The notes under the pieces were generated by a model. That model was not told where the DNA came from, made no database searches, and worked only from the letters and a program-made list of their open reading frames with translations. DNA of 64,000 nucleotides from Gekko japonicus (Eukaryota), in contig NW_015175360.1 of assembly GCF_001447785.1 (NCBI RefSeq), forward strand, positions 528,933-592,932, in the 5' to 3' direction. Within the stretch, counting starts at the first letter, position 1. Every line of letters begins with the position of its first letter. Below, one piece after another: positions 3,374 through 41,454 of this stretch. A program made the position numbers and the translations under genes.

Positions 3374-3446
3374 CTACAATGACAAAGCAGTGTGAGAGAA
3401 AAGCAGCCTCACACTTCTGCTTCCAAATACTATCCAAAATGCTTAC

Positions 3447-3508
3447 CGTGGGCAGGCCATTACACCTTTCATTTCTACACTTCCAATCACTATCTCGTTC
3501 CAGGTATC
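3447..3508 (-). CDS. MTARC2: mARC exon 5
   Basis: ccttag acceptor, gtaagc donor, 62 nt; DTWNEIVIGSVEMKGVMACPR. Confidence 0.95.
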
Positions 3509-5103: not shown

Positions 5104-5452
5104 GAGCTGCGGTGGCTCAAGTGGTTAAGATGCTGAACTGTAGGCTGTGGAAGGTCAGTAGTTCAACAGTTCGAGACCCGGGTTGCCACATGATGGAGTG
5201 AGCTCCCGTCTCTAGTTCCAGCTCCTGCCAACCTAGCAGTTCGAAAGCAAGAAATTTCAAGTAGATAAAAAGGTACCACTTCGGTGGGAAGGTAACAGCG
5301 TTCCGTGAGCCTTGGTGTTTAGTCATGCCGGCCACATGGCCACGGAAACGTCTTCGGACAGCGCTGGCTCTTCGGCTTTGAAACAGAGATGAGCACCGCA
5401 ACCCTAGAGTCGGATTCGACTGGCTTTCGAGCAAGGGAACCTTTACCTTTAC
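5104..5452 (+). mobile_element. Sauria SINE, full length
   Basis: tRNA-like head, central GGTACC...GGGAAGGTAAC, (ACCTTT)n tail. Confidence 0.88.
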
Positions 5453-5965
5453 TATCAGTATTGCAGACTTTTTTAAAGCCCTCTTGTGGTGGGAAGGGGA
5501 GGAAGATTGACAGCCACAGAGGGCTGAGGCAAGGAGAGCATGGCAAAAACTCCCACGTGACTGTTCCACGGCCACTTCAAGGGCCTCAGCTTTTACAGCA
5601 GCAACAAGAGCTACATGGAGAACTGTGGCCATGTGGAAGCAGCCCAGGTTTATACATGCATTTCATTAAGAACTTTTCTCCTCACTTTATAATCCCTGTA
5701 AAGGTGAAGTTATTAGTAGAACAGCTCAAAGAAAAAGAATTCGTGGATGTATGCTACTCAAGAGGGAATTCTTTCAGCTGTGCATCCAATTTTATCTGAA
5801 GGTGTACCCCCTGCCCATTGTCACCATTTCACTGAAAAATCCAAACATTTATTCCCTCAAGAGGCTGTGTAAATGGCTGGTTAATATTTATCTATAAACA
5901 TGTCATTTTCATTAAATATTAACACAAAGTGCCAAGGCAATTCTTTATTAGTTTATAACTATTAC

Positions 5966-6106
5966 CTCCTCATGAGGACCACAGCCGGTGACCACAATAT
6001 TTGGCCTGAAGTTACGTATTTGAACTTTCTTCTCCAGCTGGGAATTTAGCTCTTCCACGGATGCTTCAGAGAGTACCATAACTGGACTACAGTCAGGGTA
6101 GGCAAT
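5966..6106 (-). CDS. MTARC2: mARC exon 4
   Basis: ccctgcag acceptor, gtaata donor, 141 nt; [47 protein letters not shown] (FRPNI MOSC motif). Confidence 0.95.
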
Positions 6107-6926
6107 CTGCAGGGAAACATTTAAAGAGGAAATGCCATTAACAGCATCCCAAGACAACACTTCTAAATTGGCATAGTGAACTGCTCGCCCACAAATTGAG
6201 TGCAGCTCTCAAAGCATTTGTATGTAGCTTCTGGTTGTCCAAAGGCACTTTAATAAAAATGTGATAAAATATGTGACCCAACAGGTCACACAACAAAAAG
6301 GAAAATTTCTGGAAAGGTCAGAAATAATGATATTCTACCATACTGTGTTGCATCTCTGTCTAGGTTTTGTATAAAATGTCCTGGCCAACAGTTACTTGAG
6401 GAAATTACTACAAAGGTTGAGCTGCAAAGGGCTGAGTTTATAAAACAGAGTTCCTGTCTGGGAAAACAGTTCCCAAGAATATATATTTACCTGTGACAGA
6501 AAAGGTGGTAACTTGTGGCACTTACCAAGCATCCCTCACCACAACAGCCATTCAACGTGTGTCACTGAATTTCTACCTACTTTGAAATGAACATCAAGAA
6601 AGAACAGCTGTACTATGGCAGTGGAAGAAAAAACAAAAGAGGTGGTTTACAATGAGGGACCCACGAGATACCTCACTAAGGTAAATCAGAACCTTCTTGC
6701 ATCAGGAGTCATAGCCCATTAACACAATGGGAGAAAAATTGGTTCCAGCCTTGGGAGTATTCTGAAACTACAAATTCTAGTTAGTTTCCAATGTTTAACT
6801 AGTTAGATACTTGCAAACATCTTCTGTTTCTCAACACTTAGAATCATAGAATCATAGAGTTGGAAGGGGCCTCCAGAGTCATCTAGTCCAACCCCCTGCA
6901 CAATGCAGGAAATTCACAAATACCTC

Positions 6927-7341
6927 CAGGGGTCATTTCGTAGAAAAAGAGGTGCAGGAGCTCATTAGCATAGCTCATTAGCATAACTTATTTGCATAAG
7001 CCGCACCCCCTGAAATCATCGGAAGTGTGTCAGAAGGCAACACCTACCGCTCAGGCTACACTGGACTGTTTTGGATTGCTAGCTATTGGGGGGGGGGAAC
7101 GTGCAGATCTGTCCTTGCAGAGGGGGGAGAGCTTGTACCTGAATAAAACTTGGTCTTAAAGGTGCCACTGGACTGTTTTCGACCGGGGGGGCGGGGGGAG
7201 GTCTGCAACTTACCTGGCTGCTTCTTGCTCTTACGGAGGGCTGCTGGGAGCAGGGGGTGGGGCTTGTTGCGTGTGCCTGCCCCCTGGGCTCTTTACTGCC
7301 GGAGCTCCGTTCCTGTGCGCTCCTGCAGGAAATGACCCCTG
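6927..7341. mobile_element. Non-autonomous hAT DNA transposon (MITE)
   Basis: TIRs CAGGGGTCATTTC...GAAATGACCCCTG; perfect 8-bp TSD aatacctc; inserted in a CR1 3' end (agaatcat repeats at 6840). Confidence 0.9.
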
Positions 7342-7597
7342 AATACCTCCCTCTCCACCCCTGCAGTGACCGCTGTTCCATGCCCATAAGATGACAAAAA
7401 AACTCCAGGATTGTTTCCTGACTTATTTATACTCTTCTTGCAGGTGTCTAGAGCGCTTACAGACAACCCTATGCAGAGTTACTCTCATGTCAAGCCCACT
7501 GATTTTATTTATTACACTGCATTTAGACTAGAAAAACAGCACATAGGGCTGTACTGTAAGACACATGGTAAAAACGAATACAAATGCATTACCTCAC

Positions 7598-7760
7598 CTT
7601 ATCACTGGGTCGAAAAGGCTCCATAAGATCCTTTGCATTCCTTGGAACCATGCTTAATTCAAAATGAACAAGGCGATATGGATGCGAATTCAGAAAGGCT
7701 GTGATCCATTGAGCTGCCTCTTCACCACAGTCTCTGCCTTGGATGTCAAAGCCAAACACC
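7598..7760 (-). CDS. MTARC2: mARC exon 3
   Basis: cag acceptor, gtgagg donor, 163 nt; VFGFDIQGRDCGEEAAQWITAFLNSHPYRLVHFELSMVPRNAKDLMEPFRPSDK. Confidence 0.95.
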
Positions 7761-8454
7761 CTGAATGATTGTGAGGGATATCAGTATATTCTCTGCTATC
7801 CAGGACAAAATAATTCTCAGTTAATAATTTAGAGTATAAACACACGTTTTCTGAACAGCAGCAACATTTTATTCTTTTCTGAAAATTTACTCTTATTTGT
7901 ACGATAAACCCATACACCGATTAATAGGCTCATAGGATATATAGTGACTAAGCAAGAATGAGCCAAGGACTACGCAGGGGATATGCAAACTTGGTTTGGT
8001 TCTGGTGGAGATGGGAAGGCGTTAGGGTTTCCACAGGTCCCCATCCATATCCAGGGACATTTCCCTTCTTGCCTGACATTCTCTTCCTCCATCACAGGCA
8101 GGCTTTTTTGCTATTTAAAAAAATATTGGGAGTCTATTGCTGTAGCATCCTAACACTACAGCAATATGCCTACTACTTTTTTAAAGTGGCAAACTACTTA
8201 AAAAAAAAACCTGACAAAAGCCCACTCTGCTGGGGGAACACAAGGGGAAAGCACTGAGCAAATCCACGTGCAAAGGTTCCGTTCCCACTTCATTGCGCTT
8301 GCAGCAGCAATTACAGCAAAACAGGGAACCATCCCAGAGCAGAAGCAACCTTTGAAGAGACACATGACATGATCAGGTCTTCTTCCAACATGATATATAT
8401 GGGAAGACATTAATCCCACCTCAGCACCACTACTCATCTCTAACATGCCACTGA

Positions 8455-8670
8455 GGAGGGGCTGTGGCTCAGTGGTAAAGCATCTGCTAGGCATGCAGAG
8501 GATCCCAAGTTCAATCCCTGGCATCTCCAGGTAAAAGGACCAGGCAGGAGGTGATGTGAGAGACCTCAGCCTGAGACCCCGCGGAGCTGCTGCCAGTCTG
8601 AGTAGACAGGACTGACTTTGAGGGACCAAGAATCTGATTCAGTATAAGGCAGCTTCACCTGTCCACATGT
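8455..8670 (+). mobile_element. tRNA-derived SINE (Squam2-like)
   Basis: A box TGGCTCAGTGG, B box GTTCAATCCC. Related copies at 11842-12013 (-), 31923-32115 and 40457-40637. Confidence 0.75.
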
Positions 8671-8737
8671 GTACACTGCCAGGTCACTTTAACACGTAGA
8701 GAATTTGTCAAGAGATCGAATCGTAGATCCTTCACAT

Positions 8738-9154
8738 CAGGGGTCATTTCGTAGAAAAAGAGGTGCAGGAACTCATTAGCATAATTCATTAGCATAGTTT
8801 ATGTGCATATGCCACACCCCCTGACATCACCAGAAGTGTGTCAGAAGGCAACACCCACCGCTCAGGCTACACTGGACTGTTTTGGATTGCTAGCTGGTGG
8901 CCTCCGGGGGGGGGGGGGGAATGCGCAGATCTGCCCTCACAGAGGAGGGAGAGCTTGTACCTGAATAAAATTTGGTCTTAAAGGTGCCACTGGACTGTTT
9001 TGGACCGGGGGGGGGCTCTGCAACACCTGGCTGCTTCTTGCTCTGACTGAGGGCTGCTGGGAGCAGAGGGTGGGGCTTGTTGCATCTGCCCGCCCCCTGG
9101 GCTCTTTACTGCCGGAGCTCCGCTCCTGTGCGCTCCTGCAGGAAATGACCCCTG
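8738..9154. mobile_element. Non-autonomous hAT DNA transposon (same family)
   Basis: Same TIRs; perfect 8-bp TSD cttcacat. Confidence 0.9.
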
Positions 9155-9547
9155 CTTCACATAAATTATAGTATGGACTAAACAGACCAGAGTTTCAGAG
9201 ATACTACAAGTCACTAAAACTATTTAAGTACTACTCTTTCCAAAGGGGCTTAAAACAACAGTAGCATTAAATCTTTTTGATTTAGGACTGCCTAAAATAT
9301 CACTAAATAGCAAGCAAGCTTTTGAGTTCTCTAAAGACTCTTCAGGAGTAGGAGTGAGCAGAAGAAAAATGTGATAGTTCTTGTTAACAAAAGGGATTAA
9401 CTTAATTGAAAATGTACAAACACATTTGAAATGCTTTTATATGATTTAGTGACATAACTTCAACAGATGCAATTTGACTCTAAGGGATTTTACAGTTTGA
9501 TTATGAAAAATGGGCAAGAGGTTGACAGAAGGAATTATTTTATTCAC

Positions 9548-9620
9548 CTGCAATTCTTCACTGGATGGCTCTTCCCGAGCAGTCACTTTATGTCCATCTT
9601 CCTTTACCACAAGCCAATGT
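9548..9620 (-). pseudogene. Second, internally deleted copy of mARC exon 2 (73 nt)
   Basis: Same acceptor and first 54 nt as 10727-10674, joined to the exon 3' end and donor; lacks the 101 nt at 10573-10673. Part of the near-identical duplication 9567-10149 vs 10674-11280. Confidence 0.75.
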
Positions 9621-10565
9621 CTGAAGTTCAGAACACATCAAAATGCATTAAGCGTTATGGAAAGGCAACTAAACTTTGCATAGCTGAAATTCTAGCGTGG
9701 TCAGCTGTTTAAGACTGACAGTGAACGATCAGGTTGTTAATCCATGCTGATTTTTAATATGACATCTGTATTCCAGCCTTAATCAAGTTCAGAGCTGTCA
9801 CACACACTTTCCTACCTAAGTTTGAGTTAAATTTAGACTCCGTGGAGAGTTAAATTTAGATTCCATGGAACTATATCTGGTACTTTCAGACCATTCTGAG
9901 TTAAATGAACAATCTGTATAACTATGCCTTCTGCTTAGATTTTTTTTCTATACAGAAGTGCAGCATATCTCTTTGTGCCAGCAGCCACTAAATTCTTGTA
10001 GTCCTGCCCACTAATACATGACCTCTGTCACTGATTATTACCAGCACATGAAACTCCTGATCTTATCGGGATAGTCTGATAACAGCCAAGAGGTCACTCG
10101 TGGCTATAATGCTTGTTCCCAGAAATGGGCACTGACTGTGGGGTTCCTCNNNNNNNNNNNNNNNNNNNNNNNNNNNNNNNNNNNNNNNNNNNNNNNNNNN
10201 NNNNNNNNNNNNNNNNNNNNNNNNNNNNNNNNNNNNNNNNNNNNNNNNNNNNNNNNNNNNNNNNNNNNNNNNNNNNNNNNNNNNNNNNNNNNNNNNNNNN
10301 NNNNNNNNNNNNNNNNNNNNNNNNNNNNNNNNNNNNNNNNNNNNNNNNNNNNNNNNNNNNNNNNNNNNNNNNNNNNNNNNNNNNNNNNNNNNNNNNNNNN
10401 NNNNNNNNNNNNNNNNNNNNNNNNNNNNNNNNNNNNNNNNNNNNNNNNNNNNNNNNNNNNNNNNNNNNNNNNNNNNNNNNNNNNNNNNNNNNNNNNNNNN
10501 NNNNNNNNNNNNNNNNNNNNNNNNNNNNNNNNNNNNNNNNNNNNNNNNNNNNNNNNNNNNNNNNN

Positions 10566-10727
10566 ACTGGATTCTTTGGGGATAACTCAGCAGGAATATG
10601 AAGATCTTTCATTTCTGGAGCGCTCAAAGTTAGATATCCATTTTTGCAAGTGAGAGAAATCAATACCAGCCGAGGCTCTTCCCGAGCAGTCACTTTATGT
10701 CCATCTTCCTTTACCACAAGCCAATGT
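10566..10727 (-). CDS. MTARC2: mARC exon 2 (runs into assembly gap; last 12 nt seen only at 9548-9559)
   Basis: ttcag acceptor; [53 protein letters not shown]. The missing end (VKNCR|gtgaat) is present at 9559-9548, giving 174 nt. Confidence 0.9.
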
Positions 10728-11267
10728 CTGAAGTTCAGAACACATTAAAATGCATTAAGTGTTATGGAAAGGCAACTAAACTTTGCATAGCTGAAATTCT
10801 AGCGTGGTCAGCTGTTTAAGACTGACAGTGAACGATCAGGTTGTTAATCCATGCTGATTTTTAATATGACATCTGTATTCCAGCCTTAATCAAGTTCAGA
10901 GCTGTCACACACACTTTCCTACCTAAGTTTGAGTTAAATTTAGACTCCGTGGAGAGTTAAATTTAGATTCCATGGAACTATATCTGGTACTTTCAGACCA
11001 TTCTGAGTTAAATGAACAATCTGTATAACTATGCCTTCTGCTTAGATTTTTTTTCTATACAGAAGTGCAGCATATCTCTTTGTGCCAGCAGCCACTAAAT
11101 TCTTGTAGTCCTGCCCACTAATACATGACCTCTGTCACTGATTATTACCAGCACATGAAACTCCTGATCTTACCGGGATAGTCTGATAACAGCCAAGAGG
11201 TCACTCGTGGCTATAATGCTTGTTCCCAGAAATGGACACTGACTGCGGAAAGACACAGGAAACAGCC

Positions 11268-11815
11268 TGTGGGGTTCCTCAAGGGGGCAGTACTGTCCCC
11301 AATGTTATTTCACATCTACATGTGCCCCCTTGCCCAGATTGCCCGGAGGCATAGGCTAGGGTGCCACCCATATGCAGATGACACCCAGCTATATCTGTTG
11401 TTGGGCGGTCAGTCCGACTCTACCCCAGATGACCTGGAGTGGGCGCTTTGTGACATGGCGAGCTGGCTTAGACTGAGTCAACTGAAATTGAATCCAACGA
11501 AGATGGAGGTCCTGTGCCTGAGCGGACTGGGGGTAGGGACCCCACTTCCAACCTTCGATGGGGCGTCATTGGTGCCAGCGCCGAGGGTTAGGTGTTTGGA
11601 AATGCTTCTGGATGCCACCTTAACAATGGAGAGTGGCTATAATGCTTGTTCCCAGAAATGGACACTGACTGCGGAAAGACACAGGAAACAGCCTGTGGGG
11701 TTCCTCAAGGGGGCAGTACTGTCCCCAATGTTATTTCACATCTACATGTGCCCCCTTGCCCAGATTGCCCGGAGGCATAGGCTAGGGTGCCACCCATATG
11801 CAGATGACACCCAGA
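11268..11815 (+). mobile_element. Two tandem internal L2 RT fragments
   Basis: 11268-11630 resembles 12555-12915; 11633-11815 repeats 11207-11389; flanked by a repeated ggaaagacacaggaaacagcct. Confidence 0.8.
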
Positions 11816-12269
11816 CTGAGGAAAGACACAGGAAACAGCCTTGTACCAAGTCAGACCACTGCTCTAGCGAGGCCAGTACTATACACTCTGATTGGCAGCA
11901 GCTCTCACATTACTGCCTCCTGACCCTTTTAACAGAAGATGCCAGAGACTGAACCTGGGACCTTCTACATGTCCAGTAGATGCTCTACCACTTAGTCTCT
12001 ACCACAATCCCTCCCTGTTTTTAAAAGAAGTGGGAAACAGGTTTGTCAGTTTTTGAATCCATCTTTGTAGCTCAACACCTGTTTGAGCTGAAGTACTTAG
12101 CAGGTAATAAGATGGATGCTATGAAAAGTTTTACCAGCTGATTTCTACCTAAAACAGAAGTAGTACAGGAGGATGTTCTTCAGTAGCTACATACAAATAA
12201 GATCAAAATGTTTTAAGGGACCAGTGGCAGGGGGGGCTTGTTAGAGCTTTATGGACGACACTTCCATGC

Positions 12270-13633
12270 TAGACTCGTTTCAGCCCGGCTTCTAGCCAGG
12301 TCATGGGACAGAGACGGCACTGGTCGCACTCACAGATGACCTCCAGAGGCATCTGGATCGAGGCGGTATGGCAGTGCTGTTGCTGTTAGATCTATTGGCG
12401 GCGTTTGACACTGTCGACCATCAGCTACTGATCCACTGCCTCGCCGACACTGGGATTCAGGGGTTTGCCTTGCAATGCCTTGTCTCCTTTCTCCAAGGTC
12501 GGGGACAGAGGGTGGCGTTAGGGGAGCAGACATCCCAGAGGTACCCGCTGGCCTGTGGGGTTCCTCTAGGGGCAGTACTGGCCCCGATGTTATTCAACAT
12601 CTACATGCTCCCCCTTGCCCAGATTGCTCGGAGGCACAGGCTAGGGTGCCACCCATATGCAGATGACACCCAGCTGTATCTGTTGTTGGGCGGTCAGTCC
12701 AACTCTACCCCAGATGACCTGGAGCGGGCGCTTTGTGACGTGGCAAGCTGGCTTAGACTGAGTCGACTGAAATTGAATCCAATGAAGATGGAGGTCCTGT
12801 GCCTGAGCGGACTGGGGGTAGGGACCCCACTTCCAACCTTCGATGGGGCGTCATTGGTGCCAGCGCCGAGGGTTAGGTGTTTGGAAATGCTTCTGGATGC
12901 CACCTTAACAATGGAGGCCCAGGTAGCAGCCACTGCCAAGGCAGCCTTTTACCAACTGCAGCTGATTAGGCAATTGGTTCCCTTCCTCGAACGCGATGAC
13001 CTGGCAACAGTGATTCATGCTATGGTCACCTCAAGATTAGACTACTGCAACGCTCTCTACATGGGGCTGCCCTTGTCTCGGATCCGGAAGCTGCAGCTAG
13101 TGCAAAATGCGGCGGCCAGGCTGTTGATGGGTCTCTCTATTTGAGACCACATCCAAGCTGTGCTGAAGGCACTGCACTGGCTGCCAATAGCTTACTGGAT
13201 CCGTTTCAAGGTGCTGGTTTTGACCTTTAAAGCCCTNNNNNNNNNNNNNNNNNNNNNNNNNNNNNNAATGAGCTCCCGGATAACATCAGGGCCCTGCAGG
13301 ACCTTCTACACTTCCACAGGGCCTGCAAAATGGAGCTCTTCCACCGGGCTTTCGATTAGGAGCTGCCACTGTGGGCCACTGGCGAATGCGCCTCTGACAA
13401 ATGCGCCGTCGGAATACATCTCGGCCCGCATGAAACATCGGTTGGTTAATTGCCTCTGTTTGTACATTGTATGCCATCATCATCATCAGTACTGTTCAAC
13501 TGCTTAGGCAGTTGTATTTATACTCTATTGTATTTTAATGTATTTATTGTCTTAGTGTTTTTAATGTTGTTAGCCGCCTTGAGCTAGTTCTGTGGCAAGG
13601 CAGGATACAAATTGAAATAATAAATAAATAAAA
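12270..13633 (+). mobile_element. L2-clade LINE, 5'-truncated (RT to 3' tail)
   Basis: LLLLDLLAAFDTVDH, GVPLGAVLAP, YADD, SRLDYCN, LHWLP motifs; (AAAT)n tail; stop codons present. Confidence 0.9.
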
Positions 13634-14499
13634 GTGGGGAAAGCTGTTTCAGGCCCACAGTGTACAGCATCAAAAGGTGCATTAGAGATGGGGGGAAGGT
13701 GTGTGTGTATATGTAATAGTGCACTCACTGTTCTAAATCTATTGAAGTCAACAGAGCTGTAAAAAAAATCCTAAGATTTAAAAGTTTACCAGGCTAAAGT
13801 GTGTGTGTGTATGTATACCTGCATCTGAACTTTCTTCTTTCAAGTAGGAGGCTCATAGATGAAAACAATACAGTGAAAGAAGATTAAGGTAAACCTGACA
13901 CTTTTAAAAGCAGGGGTTTCCACGCCAGCATTATGTCAATCCCGCCTCTCCATTTCCAGAACTACCAGGGCAGCTGTAATTTATTAACACAGAAATCCCA
14001 TTGAGTTCAATCAGATTTACCCCAGGACCACAAATTAGAACCCACAGTAGTCCCAAAGAGATTATGACAGAGAAAACAATTTTTGGATATCCATCACACA
14101 CAAAAAATCACAATCTTGTAACTACTTAAGTAACCAATGTGATGAAGAAGCAATAAGAGAAGTCCTCTTATACTTTTGCACCTATCTATTACCACGGAGC
14201 AGAGAAATGGTACTTCCCATTCCACAAGAGACTATGCAGGTTTCCTTGGGAGGATTTGATCAAAATCTAACCCAACACACTTGTGTTTTGAAATTATTCT
14301 AAATAAACTCTGGCGGTCTTACTTCTGAGCAAATAATCATCTAGGAGGACTGACTGATCTACAACCCTCGTTTGGGAGTAGAACCCAAGTAATCGGATTT
14401 ACTATCGACCACATGGGGCACATAGTCAAGCTTCAAGTGGCCCTAAAGGCGCACCCAAAGCCGGTTGAGATGCAATTATTGTATAAAAACACTCTAGAA

Positions 14500-15130
14500 A
14501 CAGGATGAATAAAAATAGGGGGCGGGGGAGAGGCGAAACTGCAGTTCCACGGTGGACGTTCGCAGACAGACCAGCCAAATCCACCCTTCTCCCTCCCCGC
14601 TACCTGTCGCGCAGATCTCCGCAGCCGAGACCCAGCGGGGTCATTTCGGCCTGCTTCACGGCCACTCCACGGCAGGACTTGACCGGGTAAATAAAGAGCC
14701 CCGACACCGTCCCCACCCGCACCAAGCCTCGATTAGTTCGCCGCCGCCGCCGCCAAGCCGTGGCGACCCCTAGCGCAGCCACCAGGGCCAAGGCGGAGGC
14801 GAGGAACCAGACGGAGCGGGCACTGGGCCGAGGGAGGAGGCCGGAGTCACCCATGGCCTCTGCAGCTCCAACAACAGCCAGCATGCAAAAGGCGCGCCGG
14901 GCGGGAGGGGGGCGTTATAATAGCAGCAGGCGGCTCCCCTGGTGGTGGGGACGGGCTTTCTGGCACTCTTTCGCTGCTGGGCAGCAGGCGCCGCTCAGCT
15001 GCCTCCCCACTTGCCTCCGCGAAAGCGCCGGGCGGAATGTTGCGCGCGGGTTGCCGGCAGAGGGCGATGTCAGAGAGGGCGTGTGAACTACGGCCCAAGC
15101 TGGACCAGATTCAGGATGTACGGCGGCAAC
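14500..15130 (-). promoter_or_regulatory. CpG-island promoter of MTARC with TATA-like element
   Basis: High GC and CpG density around exon 1; TATTATAA at 14922-14915 (minus strand); GGGCGG boxes. Confidence 0.7.
14604..14854 (-). CDS. MTARC2: Mitochondrial amidoxime reducing component (mARC2-type), coding exon 1
   Basis: ATG in GCCATGG Kozak context at 14854. Encodes MGDSGLL...a hydrophobic anchor, RRRRR, then VGTVSGLFIYPVKSCRG...LRDR (MOSC_N start). GT donor at 14603; lies in a CpG island. An in-frame upstream ATG exists at 14884. Confidence 0.93.
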
Positions 15131-19228: not shown

Positions 19229-22087
19229 TGTTGTGTATGTGGGCCACCACGAGGGGTTCGCGGCACAGGCAAGAGCTTGGATCTGAGAACAATGGAAACT
19301 TTGGATCCTAGATCCCCCAGCCCCAACCAATAGCCACTTTGGCGGGACATTCAAACCTTCCAATGGGAATGGGGGGTGCTGGGTGGATATGTATACAGTT
19401 GGCCCTGTCGGGCCGTTAGTTAGTCTTTGTCTGTGTTAAGTACAATAAGTGCGTGCTGAAGCATGTCGTCATCTGAGTCCTCCATGCGGCGAACCCAGTA
19501 CTTTTCAGTGGCGACGAGGATGGGCTTTCCTGGCCGCCTTGAGACAGCTGGCCATGGACTGTGCATTTACAAAGGTGGAGGAGAACCTACTAATGCAATT
19601 TGTGTGAGGCATCAGCGACCAGAAGCTGCGAAGAAAGTTGATCGGTACCACTGACATCAAGCGCGACACAGCCCTCCAACTCGCTATCGCCCACGAGGCC
19701 TCTCACCGAGACCGTCCGCCGGTGGCGACTCACCTCATACTCCCCGACTCAGGCCCTGAGAACTCAGAAGAGGACGACGTCCGGCTCATCCGCCAGACAG
19801 TACGCCGAAAGCCACTGGGTCCTGCGGCATCAGGATCCACCACTGGCCGCTCCTCATGTGCCAGCTGCGGCAAGGCACGTGAGCGCAAGTCTTGTCGCTT
19901 CTGTGATGCGACATGCCACACTTTGGGAAACGGTCATCTCGCTCCAGTCTGCCGGTCAAAGGGAAGCCGGCACAAGCAGCCTCCAGCGCAGCCACGCCGC
20001 CCTGCCGCATCCCACAAGACGGCAGCAGAGACATCTGACCTCTACTTCCTCACGGATTGGCCATCGCTACAGGTACTACACCTCCCGAAATTAGAGACTA
20101 CCCCAAAGATCCAACTAATGGTACAAATCGAAGGGTCCCCCTGCACGATGGAAGTGACTCGGGGTCAGCGGCGTCCATCGTTTCCATGGACACGCTCCGC
20201 AGACTTTGCCCAAATGGGGGACCCCGCTTATGCCCACCCAATTTGAACCCAGTTCCTATCCGGGAGGTGGGGACGTTCCGGGTACAGTTTGGGACGGTTG
20301 GACTTGATAGTGGTTGAGGGAAATCTGGTCAGTCTGCTGGGTCGGGCCTGGTTCGTGCCGCTGGGCATCACAGTCGGGGTTGGGGGGGTGCTTAAATGTG
20401 GTCTGAGAGACTTTTTGGAGATTTGGGAGGAGTTCCCGGCAGTTTTCGATGGGGCTTTAGGTTGTTACAAGGGCCCCCGGTCTCCTTGCAGTTAGACCCC
20501 CTGGTAGCCCCAATCCGTATGCGATTCCGCACAGCCCCACTCGCCATATGACCAAAAATTGACGCAGAGCTGGACCGCTTGGTGGCACAAGGGGTCTTGG
20601 AGCCCGTCCTGCATGCCATATGGGAAACGCCCATTGTAACTCCCCTTCAGCCCAACAGGGAGGTCCTTCATGACCCCTCCTACCCGGTCCCGGTCATGAG
20701 CCATGTTTTAGCCTCATTAGCGGGGGCTAAGATTTTCGGGAAACTGGACCTAGCACAGGCCTATCAACAGCTGCCGGTAGATGTGGCCACATCTACCGTG
20801 CAGACTATAGTCACCCACAGGGGAGCTTTTAGGGTAAAGAGGCTACAATTCGGCATGAGCGTAGCCCCAGGAATTTTCCAACAACTAATGGATTCATTGT
20901 TAAAAGGGATCCCTGGAGTGATGCCATTTTTCGACGACGTCCTGATTGCTGCGGCATCCCCCAATGACTTCGCCTCCGCGCCGTTGTGCAACGCTTTGAC
21001 TCGGCCGGCCTCAAAGTGAAACGGGAAAAGTGCCTCCTCGGGGTTCCAGAGGTGGACTTCCTGGGGTTCCAGGTTGATGCTACCGGTCTGCATCCAGCAA
21101 AGGACAAAGTGAAGGCCATCGTGGAGGCTCCCGCCCCCACTTGCAAAGCGGAACTACAGGCGTTCTTGGGACTAATAAACTTTTATCACGCCTTTTTGCC
21201 TCATAAGGCTGTGGTAGCAGAACCCCTACACCGGCTCCTAGATAAGTTGGCCCCGTGGACCTGGGGCCCGAGGGAGGGGGCGGCGTTCAGGGGAGTGAAA
21301 GCGCTTTTAATTTCTAATGATGTGCTAGCCCACTTTGACGAATCCCTCCCAGTTGTCCTTGCATGCGACGCCTCTCCCTACGGAGTCAGCGTGGTTCTTG
21401 GCCACATTCTCTCTGATGGCCGCGAGGTCCCCATGGCCTATTACTCACGGACATTGACAGCCGTGCACTGTCTGGCGGACGAGCCGGAGATGCCAAACCT
21501 GCCAAGAAGTTTGGCCCAACCCGCCAAGCGCTCCCACACAGTCATGGGAGTCAACCCGCAAACCATGGTCCTGGCTACATATCAACTTCGCTGGACCGTT
21601 CCAGGGACTACTATTCTTAGTAACGGTTGACTCCTACTCCAAGTGGCTAGAGGTCAGCCCCGTGTCTACCACCTCCACTAAGGCAGTAATCAGATTCCTC
21701 CGCCAGATCTTCGCCACGCATGGCCTGCCGGACACAATAGTCTCAGACAACGGGGCAGCCTTCACGTCTGCGGAGTTCCAGGAATTCATACAGAGAAACC
21801 TGATCAGGCACATCCGCTCGGCACCCTTCCACCCTGCGACCAACGGCCAGGCAGAGCGAATGGTGCGTACCGCGAAGGAAGGCCTTAGCCAGATTTCAGA
21901 GGGGGGCTGGGAGTTCCGCCTAGCCCGTTTCCTCCTGACCAATAGGGAATGGGGGGTGCTGGGTGGATATGTATATAGTTGGCCCTGTTGGGCCGTTAGT
22001 TAGTCTTTGTCTGTGTTAAGTACAATAAACGCGTGCTGAAGCATGTCGTCGTCTGAGTCCTCCATGCGGCGAATCCAGTACTTTTCA
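19229..22087 (+). mobile_element. Internally deleted Ty3/Gypsy (Mag-like) LTR retrotransposon
   Basis: 5' LTR 19229(TG)-19507(CA); PBS TGGCGACGAGGATGGG at 19509. Remnants: gag double Cys/His knuckle, protease DSGSA, RT (LDLAQAYQQL, FFDD), RNase H (LACDASPYG), integrase (TIVSDNG, HPATNGQAER). Truncated 3' LTR about 21940-22087; TSD atacc/ataac; several frameshifts. Confidence 0.93.
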
Positions 22088-22663
22088 ATAACTTCCTATA
22101 AACCATGGTTCCATTTCATAGTCAATGGATCATCTAACTATGGAAGACAATGGAGAGAAAGGAAATGTAATTTTTGTTACTTTTGGAACAGATGAAGAGC
22201 AATGAATACTTTTTTTATGGCTGCCATGAGGTCATAATGGATTGCAGGCTGTGATGAGTGGTACTTCTGACATCATAATTAGCTCCTTGGCAACAGCTGA
22301 AGCATAAACACAGAAGCCATTGCTTTATGAACTCACACTAACCTTGGCTGACCAAGCAAAAGTGTTACCTGGTGAACTCTCTCTGCATCTGAAGTTTGAA
22401 GCATCTGGAGTCCTGATCTCGATCTCTCAGCTTGAGCTCAGGCTACTGAGCTGGGACCATAGCTTCCAACTCTCCCGTGGCTTCTCTCTACATCTTAAAT
22501 TGATATCCTTTAAAGACTTTGTTTCAGCTTACTTGAACTATTCAATTAGGACTCCACAGAAGGCTTAAACTAAATCTTTTAAGAATAGTGAGACAAAACC
22601 CAAGTCCCGGGACTTGACAAAAGAAGCAGCAGAGGACTTGGCAAAGGAGAGAGCCGAAGCAAG

Positions 22664-23070
22664 ATGGGAGACTGGAAAGCCTACATCAACACCGTCCTGA
22701 AGGACAAAAACATTGAAGATGTAGCCATTGTGGGACATTCTGACAATAAGTCAGTATGGGCTTCTAAACCGGGAGGCCTCCTGGCAGCCATCTCTCCCCA
22801 GGAAGTNNNNNNNNNNNNNNNNNNNNNNNNNNNNNNNNNNNNNNNNNNAACATAGCTGGCAAAAAGTGCAGTGTGATCCGCGATAACTTGCTAATGGATA
22901 AAGATGCTGTGATGGACACCAGAACCAAAGGTGGCGACAGCAAATCTATCTGTATTGGGAAGACTGCAAAAGCACTCATCTTCCTCATGGGCAAGAAGGG
23001 AGTCCATGGAGGCGCTCTTAATAAGAAGATGCATGACTTGATAGCCAGCATGAAAGCAAAAGGCAGCTAA
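22664..23070 (+). CDS. PFN3: Profilin-3-like protein, intronless, interrupted by a 42-N gap
   Basis: [48 protein letters not shown]...[73 protein letters not shown]. Closely matches mammalian PFN3 (MGDWKVYI...[17 protein letters not shown]...GVHGG). Good Kozak context (aagATGG). Confidence 0.9.
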
Positions 23071-23137
23071 AGCCAGACTTGCAGCTCCATCACTTTTCTC
23101 CTGGCTCAAGGATGTGGGGGAATTATCGTTAGCGTAA

Positions 23138-23143
23138 AATAAA
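23138..23143 (+). terminator. Polyadenylation signal of the PFN3-like gene
   Basis: AATAAA 68 nt after the stop codon, followed by U/GU-rich sequence. Confidence 0.65.
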
Positions 23144-32970: not shown

Positions 32971-33090
32971 CTACCGAAACAGCGTTGCTACCGAAACAGC
33001 CACACCAAAGGGCGATGAGTAGGCATTGGCTAGGCCTTGCAGGCCGAGCACCACATAACGACATCCTTTTTGCAGCACTTTGCCCACATT
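32971..33090 (-). CDS. C1orf115: C1orf115 orthologue, exon 2
   Basis: tatccag acceptor; [39 protein letters not shown] then TAG. Confidence 0.93.
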
Positions 33091-34511
33091 CTGGATAAGC
33101 AGAAAGACAAATAAGAGCCATTAAGGAACAGGAAAGCACTTCTATTTAACAAGGGTTTCCACAGCAGTAAGAAAAAGGGGTTGGCTGAGGCTGAATTCTC
33201 ACAGTACCTTTTGATCATGCAGGACAGAAAGGCCTCTGTGTAGTGCCACAGAGTACTGCATGAAGCTGACTGGATGATTAATTCTTGCACTGTAACATTA
33301 TTATACTTGGGTTAGACACAGGCTAGCCTACCTCAGAGGGTTATTCTGACAATGAAATTGCAGTGAGGGACCATAATAGCAGGATAAAAATACAATATAG
33401 TTACTACATGTCAGATCCATACCATGTGAATATAATTTTCTGATATCAGAATTGTTTTACATCTTTGTTTTCCATGCAATTCCCTTACAGGAGACACTTT
33501 CCATTTTACTTTATTTTTAGCTCTTTTACCCGGTTCTGTATCTCAAAGGACCCTCATAGGGGCTTACAAATTCAAACAGATTACAATAAATACAGTAAAA
33601 GCAATTATCAAAGCCAGCTCAAAACATCGATTAACTGACCCATTCCCAGAAGTATCTTCAAGAAGCACATTTTTATGACTAATTTAATATTCACAACACG
33701 AAACAAAAAATTACTACAAGATGACATCCCATACCAAAATGTTACAATAGCTTTGTCCTCTTCCTAGGGGGAACACTTGGATATTCGCTCATGAAATAAC
33801 TACCAGTTAAAAAAAACAAATTAAAAGTGAGAGTGTTGGAATGATACTGAAATTGACTGCTAAAAACTGCAAACGTCACTCATGGTGGTTGTTTGGCACC
33901 TCACTCTTTGCTTATCACAGCCACTTTTTGCTTTTCACAGTAAAGAGAAGCAGGAGGGACAATGAGGGGGAGAGAGAGATACTCAACAGATAAACTGATG
34001 GTGGCTTCTTCCAACCAGAGGAGATAATATATATATTGCAGATGAACTCAAGCTAATCAGAATGTTGTTCCTTTGGTCTGACTCATTCTTTGATCTAATA
34101 TTAACTAAACGATTTCTGACAAATGTAAGTCAAGTCAAGCTGGTTCAAGCTGATGGTGGCTTCTTCCAACCAGAGGAGATAATATATATTGCAGCTGAAC
34201 AGCACCATCAGCGTTTTTATACACAGTGCTTACAATATACATCAATCATTATGGTATTGTCTTTGGCTCAGGGAGGGTTTCCTTGATTCTGTACAGGCAG
34301 AAGTGGGTCCTCTTTGCTTGCCATTTTGTTCTCTGACACCTTCAGACTGGGGGGTGGTTACCTTGCTCACCTTCTCTTAGCAACAAGCAGTGCACCTGAA
34401 GGAAGCAGGGGAAATACTTTGCTTCTTTGCTGCTGTGGGGGTGAGAGGGAATAGAGGGAGACACTTTCCTCTCCAGTGAAAGGCAGGGCCAAATCAGATG
34501 AGATGTGACAG

Positions 34512-35017
34512 ATAAGAAGAGCCCTGCTGGATCAGACCAATAGTCCATCTAGTCCAGCATTTTGTCTCACACAGTGGCCAAACAGTTCCTCTGAAGGGCC
34601 AACAACATGATGTTGCTTCCTAGCTCTGGGATTCAGGGGATTACTGCCTGAATATGGAGGTTCCCCTTAGTCACCATGGCTAGAAGCCATTGGCAGACAT
34701 CCTCCATGAATCTATCTAATCCCCTTTTAAAGCTGTTCATTCCTGTGGCCATCACTACATCCTCTGGCAGGAAATTCCACAGTTTAATCACTCGCTATAT
34801 AAAGCAGTATTTCCTTTTGGTTGTCCTGAACCTACTGCACACCAGCTTAATTGGAACTCGAGTTCCAGTATTTTGGGGAAATGAGAATTTCTTTGTCAAT
34901 TCTCTCCACCCCATGCATAATTTTATAAACCTCTATCATGTTCCCCTCCCTCTTAGTCATCTCTTTTCTAAACTGAAAAGTCCCAGACTCTTCCACTTTT
35001 CCTCATAAAGAAGGTGC
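34512..35017 (-). mobile_element. CR1 LINE 3' fragment (older)
   Basis: ggatcagacc...ccatctagtccagcat 3' UTR and degenerate ORF2 C-terminus. Confidence 0.78.
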
Positions 35018-38000
35018 AGGTGTGTGTGGGGGGGTGTCTCCTGGTTTTGGGTGCTCCTCTCCACCACCACCCAATTACCCTCCCAAACAGGCAAGAAGCT
35101 GGAAATAAACGTGACATGCCTATGTGACCCAGAAGTTACATAGGCATGTCAGGGATCTTGGGGTGGGGCAAAACTATATGGTAGAAGTTTACCCCAAAAC
35201 CAGAGCATCGCCCCCCAATGTCCCTGCTTCATTTCCAGGTTGTGTAGGCACATTGTGTTTATTTTCAGCATTCCTCCCCACTCCCGATAAGTTCATACAC
35301 CCCATTCCCTGCTGGCAGGTCCAAGGGACCTGGGGACCCTAGAAGGTCCTCCAACCCCCTAATCACATTGGTTGCCCTCCTCTGTACTCTATGTTGAGGA
35401 AAGATCCGAGATCTCTATATAAGATACCAGTGACAAAGCTCCACGTTTTCTCAAAAGCTTTAATTTTATTTAAAAAGAGCTACAGAGCGTTGGATCATGG
35501 CTGCAGTGAGAAGATAGGTATACTTTTGAATCCCAGGCCTAAAGGGCAGTCCGCATATTTTTATCTCAGTATCCTTCCATTCCCATGTAAAGAAGGGGCA
35601 GGCTGGCGATCTGTTTCTAAAGCGAAATGGAGAATGTTTGTAGGCAAGGGGAGCCAAGCCCTCCCTGGCACCCCTTCCCTGTGACCTTGCTGTATTTGAT
35701 TGGTTGGTTGCAGTATTTTGCTTCTAGCTCAAGTCCAAAACTGGAAGTCAGCTGACCACAGCCTGGTATGGCGAAGCCAGAGGTCAGCTCTCCTTACCTG
35801 CGAGCTCCAGGCCCCCCCTGCACACATTTCACTTGAGAAGTCTAGCAAAGAAAGACAAAAGCCCTCCTGTCTCTACTCTGCCAGTGGGATTTTCACAACC
35901 TCCAAAATAGTGACACTTTTAACTACTGGCCTGAAATTTGGCCAAGACAGGAAAGAAAAGGTTTCCCAGTCGGGAATGTGCTTCTCACTGAAACCAATGG
36001 AAATAAAAAGAAAGATAAATGCTGGTAAAGAATGGAAACGAATGAAGGCGATAAGGAACACATGAACATGAAAACTAGAGAGTTGGTGAACAAAGTCACA
36101 AATGCAATGTATGTGGATAGCACCACCTAAACAAATCCATAAAGAATGAAAAGCCCGTGACCTGGACCCGGTTTATTCATTCTCTGACATGGTTGTTGCA
36201 CTGGCGCTGCAAATACTTGGCACTGAAGGCACTTGGAATGAAACTCTCCTCAACCCTAGCCATTTCCTTTCCTCTAGGTTGCCTCAGGGCTGTATTATAC
36301 AACTTAACTGTCTGTTTCGATTGGCCATGGGCCAGATCATCACAGCAGATTTTGATTAGAGCTCCCTTGTTGATCTTTGCGTGAGTTAGAAAGATGAAGA
36401 AACAACACACTCCTGCAGAGAGAACTGATGGAGGGGGGAGTAATTCAAGGGAGGGATAGGCAAGTACATTTTTCAATATGGCCAGGCCATCTGTTGAACA
36501 AGAGACTGCATCACACCGACATGTTTGTTGTACGATAACTGCAGCTCTTATCTTATGATAAATATTCCCCCTTGACATCAGCTAACGGGGATGGAGGTTT
36601 CTGAGCATAAACATGCAGTGCCTGACTTCCGAGGCACGCTGATCATATGATCATCCCTTGGTAACAACTTCTGGAATGGGTTCGTAGGAATGGGTTCCAA
36701 TAATGCACAGCAAAGGTAAAAACCTATATCATAGCTCAGACTTCTTGGGCTATTGTCTTCATGTGTTAAAAAGACAGTGTTAAAAAGGAAGAGACAAGAT
36801 ATGAAGGAAGCTTCAGGCAATCATGTGATGCACAGATGACAGCTGGTGTGGTGTAATTGTGAAGGCTAGGATCTGGGAGACACAGGACTGAATCCCTACT
36901 TTGACATGAAAGCTTCTTGGGTGACCTGGGGCCAGTTTGTCTCAGTCTGACCTACCACACAGGATTGTCGTGAGTATAAAAGTGGAGGAAACAATGATGT
37001 ACACCACCCTGAGTTCTCTGAAGGAAAGATGGGATGAAATTGTCATGCTGATAAAATGGGTGGTTGGATGATTCCCAGTCCTTATTCTAAAAGGGATATT
37101 ACCAAATATTTTCAAAAGAATTTGCCTAGGAATGAAGAGTCACATCCTGGATTTCCTACAGCCATCTTGCATTCAGCCAAACGGACTGGATAGAAGTGTT
37201 GGCTTCTTAGGGCACTGTCAATCAATGTCTTCAAGGTCCCTTTCCTTTCCCATTAACCTTCCAATTGACTGAAGGGCTTACTTACAGCCTGATCCCAGGA
37301 CCTGCTGTGCTGTGCAAATGAGCAATTCAAATGGGATACACCAATGATTGCACCCAGCACACCTCCGTAACCAGGGTATTATGCCAAATATCAAGGGATG
37401 TTCAGTTATTCTTGCAGACTAAACACACCTATACATAGAATCATGAGGTCACATGCACAAGATGCAGATCTCCTGTTCAGTGCTTCCCCTTTGGCATGGA
37501 AGAGAAAGGTATAAAACCTGCAGGCTGGCACTCTCTTATCCACAGCCATTGGTCATGGAAATGGCACTTATCACCAGATCTCCTCCCTGACCTTGGGAAC
37601 ATTACATCACATCATTTGACTTGGCAGAGATGGTACAATAAAACGTTTGTACCTTGGCCAGAACAATGGAACCCTCATCTCAGCAAGGACCAAAGCCCTT
37701 CCCAAAACAGATACACAACACTCCCAGCCCCCCACTTGAGCTTAAACCCTCTATACAATGCAGCAGTATTTGTAAGGCAGGATGTGACTCTCTCACCAAG
37801 AGTTGTAGCAAAAGGCTGCAGATTGAGATCAAACACAAAACTCGCTTTTGTTGGCTGTGCCTGCTGAAATCAGATGGAGTTGGTCAACAGCCCTACAGCT
37901 AATTCATATAAGATACAAGACTTCACACACATCTAGATATTTATTACACAGTGGCTTGAATCACAACTTCCTTTCCTGCCTGTAGAATCCACTTCCACCC

Positions 38001-40125
38001 ATTGAAACTGTGTGTGTGTGTGTTCTGGCAATTCCACTGCAGAGCACTGCTTCACACACGCATCCACACTGTCCCCAGGGGTCCACTGACAACGTGATTT
38101 CGAGGGGAGGGCACAACAAGCTATAGAGGGAGGGGGAAGCAGGAAATTTCTCTTCATCCCCAGTCTGCCAGGGAAATTTGCTGGGTGACCTGGGCCCAGA
38201 CATGTACTTTCAGTCTAAACTACCTCACAGGGTTGTTGTGAGGATAAAAGGAAGGAGAGGGGAACACTGCAAGCCACTTTGGGTCCCCCCTGGGGAGAAA
38301 GGGAGATTTTAAATGAAGTAAGTAAATAAATAAACAACTCTAGTACCACTCTGTTTGTGCGAGAAAAGAAAAATGGTATTATGCAAGGATGGAGGACAAA
38401 TTCCAAAGCAGCACTTATTTTTGAATGTAAAAAATTAAAATAAATTATTAAATGCAAAACATTCTAGAACAAGCCTCTTCCTCCATGCTGCACCTCCACC
38501 AGAAAAAAACAGGACTTATATAGGAGAAAAGCCCATCTTGCCAGGTCCCTGGGAATACAGCCCCCTCTTTCTCCCATCAGAGGTGGTGATAAACAGAAGG
38601 GATGTTGCCTCCTATGACAATTTCATTCATTAGTCAGAATTTTTTTAAAAAACTGTCAAAAACACATAACATACCTTTAAAGGTTGCTGTGAGGATAAAA
38701 TACGAGCAGAGAACCAGGTACAATGCCCTGAATTCCATAAAGGAAGAGTGGAACAAAAATACCTAGACAGATTTGGACCCACTCGTAGAGGAGTTGTGCA
38801 GTTCTGCTCATTTGGGCATCTAGACACCAAACAGGATTGCCAGCCTCCAGGTGGGGTATGGAGATTCCCTGGAACTACAACTGATCTCCAGACCACAGAG
38901 AGAATTCCCCTGGAGAAAATGGATCCTTTAGACAGTGGACTCTATTATTTATTTATTTAATTCAGTTTGTTTATTTATTTAAATTCAGTTTATATTCTGG
39001 CCCTCCCCGCCAATGCGGGCTCAGGGTGGCTTACATAGAATTTTCTATAAATACAATTAAAACTCTATGGTATTATACCCTACTGAGGTCCCTCCCCAAA
39101 CTCTGACCCTCCCAGGATCCACTCTCCAAATTTTCAGGAGCTCCCCAACCTGAAGTTAGCAAGCTTAATAACAAACTGGAATACCTAGCAATTCAACTAT
39201 ACCACAGGGATCTGCACATGGGGATGGAAGCACTTAATTTTTCTTCCCCTCCTGTGTGCCACTCTCACTCCTCACTAGAATATCTTCCTTCGCCACAATT
39301 TCTCCCCAGCTCACATTGACTACACAGCCAGCCAGCCAGCCAGCCACAGAGACTTTGTAGTAAAATTGTACAGAGTACAAATTGTAGTTGCTTCAGAAAT
39401 CTTCTTTTCAGTGAAATGGATGGATGTATCGAACAATTTTTTTCCTGGAAAACAGTTTCAACATAACCACTGTGCTGTCAGTTTTCTCCCTTTCTATCGG
39501 CTTTAATTTATACTGTTCGTTACACTTTTCTTCTGCAAAAGTATGAGAATTGTTGAGCTTGGTAGACCTTTTACTTCTATTTGGAAAGAGAAATAGAGCC
39601 ACTGAATTGTAGACCAGTTTATATTGGGAGGTTGGGTTTCCCTGGAAAGAATGGAAATACCGCTGCTTTGACATCAAGCCTCCCTGAAGAATACCTACAG
39701 TAAAAGACTGATTTCAGTGATAGCTCCAGCAGCAAACCAGCAGTTGTGCCTCGGATCTAAAAGGAAGGGGAGTTTTCTGCATTTAAGCTCTTTGCTACTA
39801 TTGGGGGAGGGGGAGTCAGGCCTCATACTTCTTCCTAATTGGAATGCTGTCACAATAAGGATGCCAAGAGAAACGCAGCACAAAGAAATGCAAAGCATCT
39901 GTCACATGGAGGAGCTTAGAGTCTTTGCAAGATGGAAATGACAGAGCTCTCTTTTGATCTGTGTGAACACCAGCTTCATTAGCGCTCTGATAGAACTTGG
40001 TTCTTCTAAACAGGAGAGAACAATTCACCAACTCCATCATCAGATTTAACTAATTATTTCTTTGGCAAAGAAAATTCTGTTTTGTGCTGGAAAAGCACCC
40101 TTCTGCTTCAAGAATTGTCCAAAAG

Positions 40126-40310
40126 ATATCTCGTCATATCTCAGAAGCTACGCAGTGCCAACCTTGGCAAGTACTTGGAAGGGAGACTTCTAAGCAATAC
40201 CAGGGCTGGGATGCAGAGGCAGCCAATAATAAGCCACCTCTCTGAAATGTCTAAGCCCCATTAGGGGTCGCCAGAAGTCGATCATGACTTCCAGGCACAT
40301 GCACACACAC
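40126..40310 (+). mobile_element. 5S rRNA-derived SINE
   Basis: Degenerate 5S internal control region (atctcagaagctacgcag...agtacttggaagggagac) followed by a non-5S tail. Related copies at 44117-44250 (+) and 44545-44730 (-). Confidence 0.75.
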
Positions 40311-41454
40311 AAAAAAAGATTTGTCCAAAAGGTCTCACACAGACCTAACCCAAAATGCTGAAAAATTATTGCACTGTATTGGTACTTTCCCCCCCTAATC
40401 CCACCTTTCTTCCAAAGAGCTCAGGACAGCATACATAGCTACTCCCATTTTATCTGGGAGGGGCTGTGGCTCAGTGGTAGAGCATTTATTTATTTTTTTG
40501 CAGACAACAGGTCCCAGGTTCAACCTCCAGCATCTCCAGTTTCAGGAATCTGACAACAACGATCTCCACCTGAGAGCCTAACAACAGTGACCATGGTGGA
40601 CGAAGAATCTGATTCAATATAAGACAACTTCATGTATTCCTGCCCACATTAACATCTATTTCTATTTATTTACACCCCAATTGTCTCCCCAGCGAGGACC
40701 CAAAGTGGATTACAAGATGGTTCCTCACCCCAGCAATCCTTAGGACCACCAATTGTCTGGAGAGAAAAAATGTCCTGTTCCTTTCATAAAGGCTTAACAG
40801 GATGTTATATTTATTTATTTAAAATATTTATTTGTCTGCCTTTCCCCTGAACATTTCAGGACCCAAGGCGGTAACCATACCATCAAAACAATTTCATAAA
40901 CATCCAAAACAGTAGACATAAAACATTTTAAAAGACCTATGCGCGCACACCTCATGCCCTCACCAGTCCTCTTTGCCCATGCTCAGGCTGCCTCCAAAGC
41001 TCTTTGGAACAGCTCTGTTCTGCAGGATCATTGCCAGGAAGGTAGGAGCCCCAAGTCATGTGGTCCCCAGATCACGAAGGCCTTTAAAGGTAAGTGCCAG
41101 TACCTTGAACTGAACCTGGAAACTAACTGGCAACTAGTGAAAGGATCTCAAAATAGGAGCAATGTGCTCCTGCTGGCTAATCACACATAACAAACAAGCT
41201 GTCCCATCTTGCACCAGCTGCAGGTTCCAGACTGTCTTCAAGAGCAGCCGCATGTACAGCACATTACAGCCACTCAGACTTGAGGTTACTTAAGTATGGA
41301 CCATTGCAGCCATTTCAGGAGTCTGCAAATAGGGAGTAAGCCTCCTAACTACATGTAGCTGAGGAAAAGCATTTTTGCCCTCAGTGACACCTGTTTCTCC
41401 AACAGGAGACCAGGATCCAGCAAGACTCCCAAGATCTTAAGAGAGTCTCAAACC

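Follow-up and report, generated by a model that had tools for sequence, protein, structure and literature searches.

Results

Gene content of the window

The window, by which we mean the whole 64-kb stretch of Gekko japonicus DNA that was analysed, contains one profilin gene, a forward-strand open reading frame that runs from the ATG at 22664 to the TAA at 23068–23070 (Table 1). The ATG stands in a Kozak context (A at −3, G at +4), and the two halves of the frame, on either side of an assembly gap, matched Pfam Profilin (PF00235) with 34.3 and 40.3 bits against a cut-off of 25. The reading frame is genuine; the start, the stop and the AATAAA described in an earlier note on this DNA were all confirmed. 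The same note called the gene intronless, which holds for the coding region, a single exon that is continuous in public contigs, while 5′ untranslated exons may exist. Indeed, several reptile RefSeq profilin-3 records carry two to four accessions for one identical protein, which may reflect alternative 5′ untranslated exons. No A-rich tail was seen behind the AATAAA in the window, an absence that is uninformative because no tail, and likewise no target-site duplication, would last at a locus whose age reaches back at least to the turtle–lizard split (see below).

Table 1 Features of the window (forward-strand coordinates)
Feature	Position	Strand	Remarks
MTARC (mARC) gene	1600..14872 (ends approximate)	-	MOSC_N and MOSC exons; head to head with PFN3, about 7.8 kb apart
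Gypsy-type LTR retrotransposon, degenerate	19229..22087	+	5′ LTR 19229-19507; shortened 3′ LTR 21939-22087
Probable proximal promoter/5′ UTR	22088..22663	+	576 nt, from the LTR element to the ATG
PFN3 coding region	22664..23070	+	Single exon, 137 codons with the gap at its true size; Pfam Profilin
GT at start of codon 48	22805..22806	+	Candidate splice donor; matches the position of the mammalian SLC34A1-antisense donor
42-N gap in PFN3	22807..22848		True size 49 nt; letters just behind it mis-assembled
AATAAA polyadenylation signal	23138..23143	+	Predicted from sequence; T/G-rich stretch behind
C1orf115/RDD1	32971..46000	-	Exons 46000-45689 and 33093-32971; tail to tail with PFN3, about 9.9 kb apart
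MARK kinase, last coding exon	54992..55399	-	KA1 domain

The neighbours were those that the earlier note had named, recognized by the MOSC_N and MOSC domains of MTARC, by the C1orf115 record of G. japonicus (100% identical) and by the KA1 domain of the MARK kinase, which we take to be MARK1 from its position in the human block. The first coding exon of MTARC ends at 14603, and a CpG-rich stretch covers the start of this gene at 14–16 kb; with the two genes head to head, it is a possible borrowed promoter for PFN3. The Gypsy element upstream of PFN3 retains fragments of reverse transcriptase, RNase H and integrase that stand in different reading frames, and its LTRs are 95.3% alike over 149 nt, with flanks that agree in four of five letters. 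Two CRE-like octamers (22227 and 22268, one mismatch each) lie 400–440 nt upstream of the ATG. Although two such sites in 576 nt have a Poisson p of 0.012, the count over the whole window is at chance level (18 against 13.75 expected), and we rejected them as evidence, keeping them as a weak lead only.

Three further observations concern the flanking genes. A 572-nt direct repeat (9567–10138 and 10674–11245, 99.3% alike) duplicates a portion of an MTARC exon next to a 416-N gap and is likely an assembly artefact. An MTARC intron contains remnants of a LINE-type reverse transcriptase (11182–13507), and a hAT transposase remnant (61027–61467) lies in a MARK intron.

The assembly gap conceals an intact reading frame

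In the assembly as given, the two halves of the PFN3 frame are out of register across the 42-N gap. Two independent public contigs (X2 and X15) each insert seven letters (4 + 2 + 1) at this place; thus, the gap measures 49 nt, as the earlier note had estimated by alignment, and the frame is restored, with 47 codons before the gap, 18 within it and 72–73 after it. Immediately behind the gap both contigs encode Ile-Thr where the window gives Asn. The claim that the gene carries no disabling mutation is therefore upheld for the gene itself but not for the sequence as assembled, which contains a frameshift. Judging from relatives only, whose 137-aa proteins are 97–98% identical, the gap would hold no stop codon. 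All nine distinct coding substitutions in the two contigs were synonymous, against an expected 21–29% (p ~1e-5 to 1e-6), from which we conclude that gecko PFN3 is a functional gene subject to purifying selection.

The match of the X2 contig ends at 22128, and about 1.1 kb beyond that point is unlike the window. The stretch at 22090–22127, beside the LTR element, may vary between individuals or close species.

The gene is the gecko member of an old profilin subfamily

The best database match was the NCBI record ‘PREDICTED: profilin-3 [Gekko japonicus]’ (XP_015280841.1), whose 119 residues all equal the window translation and whose contig has the same size as that of the G. japonicus C1orf115 record. 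This model differs from the window gene in that the 18 residues encoded by the gap are missing from it; the full protein has 137 aa. The gene is thus ordinary PFN3, already annotated by NCBI and not new in itself; NCBI uses the name profilin-3 across sauropsids, and the proviso of the earlier note, that such annotation would make this a known feature, largely applies.

The name ‘profilin-3’ is given to 137-aa proteins in lizards, snakes, turtles, crocodilians, ratites, frogs, salamanders, a caecilian and the coelacanth, and the name ‘profilin-3-like’ to proteins in sturgeons, paddlefish, sharks, rays and a chimaera. Since orthologues or ‘like’ copies extend out to sharks, gecko PFN3 is no sauropsid novelty. 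The earlier suggestion of a separate sauropsid paralogue or young retrogene is not supported, as the family spans sharks to mammals and the best tree places the mammalian genes among those of other tetrapods. We regard the open reading frame as the single gecko PFN3 orthologue, a member of a compact one-exon profilin subfamily as old as jawed vertebrates.

With G. kuhli PFN3 as a full-length stand-in for the gapped window protein, identity was 89–99% to squamates, 67–91% to archosaurs and turtles, 67–82% to amphibians, 60–74% to cartilaginous fishes and 59–64% to mammals; PFN1 and PFN2 reach only 42–47% identity to squamate PFN3. The window protein itself shares 71 of 119 aligned residues with chimpanzee PFN3. 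In most neognath birds PFN3 has 131–135 aa.

Several observations touch individual groups. Bird PFN3 is three residues shorter and evolves faster, with an end branch of 0.45 for Numida in a 57-row tree (record P0066), and the records of two penguins and one auk are flagged as low quality. In cartilaginous fishes a single small chromosome or scaffold bears at least two PFN3-like copies (P0054/P0064, P0192/P0198 and P0193/P0194). Among the matches listed (70 and 65) there was no row for monotremes, teleosts or Xenopus, other frogs being present; these may be losses. A passage of a review lists Xenopus and chicken PFN3 as not identified (PMC12452346). Two scans of metagenome contigs found no PFN3 locus, and matches in the ESM Atlas were to generic profilin clusters only. 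A poxvirus profilin-like structure (PDB 4qwo) is similar to the squamate PFN3 model both in sequence (E 6.9e-9) and in fold (TM 0.87), and viral profilins have been claimed to resemble PFN3.

Fold, diagnostic residues and likely function

As the window protein is gapped, an alignment-based fold model was made on a relative that is 97–98% identical (P0004). It reached a pLDDT of 90.2 (a single-sequence model gave 37) and a TM score of 0.92 to mouse PFN2a (2v8c) and human PFN1 (1awi), and gecko PFN3 is thus predicted to adopt the profilin alpha/beta/alpha fold. With PFN1 and PFN2a (PDB 1awi, 2btf, 2v8c and 2vk3) it has in common this fold (TM 0.91–0.92) and the Arg, His and Lys residues that contact actin. 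By contrast, identity to these proteins is low, as given above, PFN3 is three residues shorter at the loop after RTK, Leu and His replace the Phe59 and Tyr128 of PFN1/PFN2a, and the poly-proline site lacks its aromatic residues at the C terminus. The PFN1 and PFN2 genes also have introns.

Mammalian PFN3 is described as having an actin surface that is kept, with Leu for Phe59, His for Tyr128 and retained Arg74, Arg88, Lys90, His119 and Lys125, and a poly-proline site that has lost two aromatic residues at the C terminus, and it is reported to bind actin, poly-proline and phosphoinositides (Behnen 2009, PMC2694148). The window protein carries His126, Arg75, Arg89, Lys91, His117 and Lys123. Leu60 falls inside the gap and is present in all 11 squamate relatives. 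Half of the poly-proline site is kept, with Trp4, Tyr7 and Trp32 present and the aromatics replaced by Ser131 and Ser137. Thus, the diagnostic residues, the half-kept site and a length of 137 aa in one coding exon place the protein in the PFN3 subfamily. Sharks and bony fishes retain Tyr or Phe at position 131, and cartilaginous fishes mostly have Phe, Ile or Leu at 137, so that their poly-proline site is fuller than that of tetrapod PFN3.

Mouse Pfn3 expression is described as peaking in round spermatids (Carlile 2009, PMC2673434), and its loss as upsetting the acrosome and the manchette (Umer 2021, PMC8632698). By analogy, gecko PFN3 probably has the same role in shaping spermatids. It would be made in post-meiotic spermatids, bind actin monomers through the conserved surface and proline-rich partners weakly through the half-kept site and, as extrapolated from mouse, help to build the acrosome, acroplaxome and manchette. 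Two RNA runs of which the tissue is not given (X21 and X22) yielded no reads on the PFN3 coding region; X21 placed two reads in the window, both on a repeat at 23.4–23.5 kb, and X22 none. The X15 contig covers 22409–22975, its run being only guessed to be RNA.

PFN3 has different chromosomal neighbours in reptiles and mammals

In mouse and human, PFN3 is described as lying downstream of SLC34A1 and beside F12 (PMC4996343, PMC2673434), and one of these papers states, from an Ensembl comparison, that only mammals and marsupials have Pfn3 behind Slc34a1 (Piatek 2016, PMC4996343). In the window, PFN3 is neither downstream of SLC34A1 nor beside F12; MTARC and C1orf115 adjoin it instead. All three parts of the central earlier claim, namely that the gene is PFN3, that it is intact and that it lies outside the mammalian SLC34A1/F12 setting, are therefore upheld. 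We found no paper on the position of PFN3 outside mammals in open-licence PubMed Central and bioRxiv. PFN3 was not found in the Murat 2023 supplement or in the axolotl tables, and an F12 paper does not mention it.

We scored linkage from database records, taking PFN3 and C1orf115 records on a contig of equal size as lying on one chromosome; equal size proves a shared chromosome, and close linkage is established only for the gecko and Platysternon. Usable pairs were obtained for five of nine C1orf115 matches and for four of ten further C1orf115 look-ups, with tuatara dropping out for want of a contig, and Xenopus tropicalis and smelt for want of a PFN3 row. In every usable squamate (5/5) the contig was shared: Gekko japonicus (1,771,965), G. 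kuhli (178,238,668), Sphaerodactylus (196,596,289), Heteronotia (285,831,653) and Rhineura (211,903,021). The turtle Platysternon likewise has both genes on one scaffold of 11,300,740, with accessions 11 apart (TFK09757.1 and TFK09746.1). GenBank misnames this turtle PFN3 ‘PX domain-containing protein 1’ and its C1orf115 ‘transmembrane protein 170B’ (P0115, P0260). The two genes lie on separate chromosomes in wallaby (762,225,844 versus 539,575,378), coelacanth (103,744,520 versus 287,409,256) and sevengill shark (20,256,265 versus 92,458,575).

For the newt Pleurodeles and for birds we compared chromosome sizes. The newt chromosome that carries PFN3 measures 1.625 Gb in one assembly and 1.556 Gb in the other. 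On newt chr5 a mir-194/mir-192-family pair, which we take to mark 1q41, lies at 1,739.6 Mb, giving this chromosome a length of at least 1.740 Gb. Chr5 is the counterpart of axolotl chr4 (PMC11872487, Table S5), where the human 1q41 genes BPNT1 and RAB3GAP2 are located (PMC6360810, supplement). As the PFN3 chromosome is smaller than chr5, newt PFN3 would lie off the 1q41-equivalent chromosome unless the assemblies differ far beyond their totals (20.3 versus 19.8 Gb). SLC34A1 is on chr3 in axolotl, of which the main newt counterpart is chr7 (PMC11872487, Table S5). Newt chr7 is among the chromosomes of a size that fits newt PFN3. Bird PFN3 contigs measure about 109–148 Mb in most chromosome-level assemblies and 21–43 Mb in hawks and eagles; chicken SLC34A1 is on chr13. 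The larger sizes presumably correspond to chicken chr3 and not to chr13, which suggests that bird PFN3 is on the same macrochromosome as C1orf115. The chromosomes that carry PFN3 measure 13–50 Mb in most shark species listed and 28–46 Mb in sturgeon.

Mammalian PFN3 changed its composition, and its splice donor is older

For the tree we used 25 of the 57 collected proteins, dropping long rows and near-copies, and rooted it on sharks without a PFN1/2 outgroup. Tetrapods (97/90) and amniotes (72/72) were recovered, mammals fell within tetrapods on a stem 0.72 changes per site long, and the monophyly of sauropsids was not rejected (p 0.08). Trees with mammalian PFN3 as an older paralogue were not rejected either (p-AU 0.18, 0.054 and 0.083, the first two for mammals outside tetrapods or bony vertebrates), the protein being too short for the AU test to reject older paralogy. 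We accordingly put forward the orthology of reptile and mammalian PFN3 as probable, relying on the best tree and on the single protein type that each species has among the matches listed. In the 57-row tree mammals fell within birds, which we discounted as probably a long-branch effect, as it was gone in the 25-protein tree.

The lysine and arginine content separates the groups: mean K/R is 16.3/4.6 in sharks, 18.7/3.5 in squamates and 3.8/14.6 in mammals. The Lys-richness of PFN3 is ancestral, and it was mammals that changed to Arg. Of the earlier remark that many mammalian Arg positions are Lys in the gecko, in keeping with a lower-GC setting, the contrast stands, but the direction does not. 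With amphibians to polarize the changes, we counted 23 on the therian stem, 8 of them Lys to Arg, versus none on the non-avian reptile stem. Of the therian changes 18 raised GC, one lowered it and four were neutral (18/19 directional, p 8e-5). Such a burst is compatible both with a mammalian move and with a region that turned GC-rich in mammals, and the 5q35 region is GC-rich in mammals.

Mouse and human Pfn3 are described as spliced after codon 47 into an SLC34A1 antisense transcript (PMC2673434, PMC4996343). One protein record (P0155) agrees over residues 1–47 and then departs. The gecko has a GT at the corresponding place, and the donor therefore predates its use in the antisense transcript. 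Mammalian PFN3 thus resembles the gecko gene in its 137 aa, single coding exon, 59–64% identity, diagnostic residues and GT after codon 47, and differs from it in being Arg-rich with SLC34A1 and F12 as neighbours, whereas the gecko gene is Lys-rich, lies between MTARC and C1orf115 and could have no SLC34A1 antisense partner.

Discussion

Our results establish PFN3 between MTARC and C1orf115 in the gecko and raise the question of which amniote position is the older. Because the site is common to lizards and a turtle and is absent from shark, coelacanth and, as chromosome sizes suggest, newt, it is not the ancestral vertebrate site; PFN3 arrived there no earlier than the amniote stem and at least as early as the turtle–lizard split. 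This weakens the earlier suggestion that the MTARC–C1orf115 site is the ancestral amniote locus and that the mammalian gene moved, since PFN3 of coelacanth, shark and probably newt is off the C1orf115/1q41 chromosome. With a site no older than the amniote stem, that version needs two moves, whereas a single one suffices for sauropsids, provided that the mammalian site is old. The balance therefore tips towards a move of PFN3 in sauropsids, with mammals having kept the older SLC34A1/F12 place. Among the points against it are the mammal-only statement of Piatek 2016 and the burst of changes on the therian and not the reptile stem.

The direction and mechanism of the move, like the testis function, we infer. 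PFN3 would have been absent from MTARC–C1orf115 in early bony vertebrates and early tetrapods, a copy would have been placed there in the sauropsid ancestor by mRNA retroposition or DNA-level transposition, and the original sauropsid copy would then have been lost. The two mechanisms cannot be told apart, because with a coding region of one exon there is no intron loss to read. In orphan retrogenes, which are relocated and single-exon, a copy can replace its parent at a new site. PFN3 resembles them in being short, germ-line and present as one copy at lineage-specific sites, and is unlike them in that the signature of intron loss is impossible in a gene that already had one coding exon.

A more far-reaching form of the sauropsid move, which we offer tentatively, makes PFN3 a nomadic one-exon sperm gene that has changed chromosome more than once. 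The sauropsid copy would have jumped beside the MTARC CpG island and replaced the SLC34A1/F12 original without fixing an amino-acid change, while the mammalian copy stayed put, was rewritten by the 23 mostly GC-driven changes and lent its old cryptic donor to the antisense transcript.

Two serial moves, in effect the leading suggestion of the earlier note confined to amniotes, are an unlikely alternative. PFN3 would have reached MTARC–C1orf115 in the amniote ancestor, where sauropsids kept it, and mammals or therians would have carried it on to SLC34A1/F12, the GC-biased change and the antisense transcript following that second move. The therian burst against a changeless reptile stem, the reported restriction of the Slc34a1 neighbourhood to mammals and marsupials, and the small PFN3 chromosomes of sharks and sturgeon, which imply more than one change of chromosome, all speak for it. 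However, it costs one extra move if newt and coelacanth PFN3 lie on the SLC34A1 chromosome, as their sizes allow, and the GC shift is also expected from staying in a region that turned GC-rich. Somewhat more doubtful is a serial relocation in which both amniote sites derive independently from a third, older one. The data imply three or more settings, one in sauropsids, one in therians and one on the small chromosomes of sharks, where copies stand in tandem, but this history is less economical, and we have no evidence of amphibian PFN3 away from SLC34A1.

Old paralogy, in which the reptile and mammalian genes split before tetrapods, were lost reciprocally and are not orthologues, is improbable. 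The AU test leaves room for mammals outside tetrapods or bony vertebrates, as noted, and sharks and sturgeons have at least two copies; against this, the best tree puts mammals inside tetrapods, no amniote or amphibian among the matches listed has two different PFN3 genes on different contigs, and amphibian PFN3 is 67–82% identical to the gecko protein though sited elsewhere. Finally, a pseudogene or a recent retrocopy brought by the adjoining LTR element has almost nothing left to recommend it: the Gypsy element ends 576 nt upstream, the assembly is frameshifted and two RNA runs are silent over the coding region, yet two contigs restore the frame, all nine substitutions are synonymous, identity across squamates is 89–99%, and we rejected the element as a carrier since LTRs 95% alike make it far younger than a site common to lizard and turtle.

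On the reading that we favour, a move in sauropsids, the change of position of PFN3 adds a further example to the known process of gene relocation. Orthology calls that rely on synteny would overlook the human–reptile PFN3 pair. Reviews present PFN3 as essentially a mammalian gene (Piatek 2016, PMC4996343; PMC12452346), yet 137-aa members reach sharks. Reptile PFN3 keeps the ancestral tetrapod sequence and is therefore the right control for the effect of the mammalian Lys-to-Arg changes on lipid and actin binding; it is also suited to asking whether the manchette and acrosome roles predate mammals. The position of PFN3 dates the SLC34A1 antisense transcript, the splice donor having existed before. 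These points are of interest chiefly to researchers on profilins, sperm genes and the SLC34A1 antisense pair. If PFN3 is indeed nomadic, this would overturn the printed view of a mammal-only Pfn3–Slc34a1 neighbourhood and would provide a natural experiment on the influence that the location of a gene has on its protein, here from Lys to Arg.
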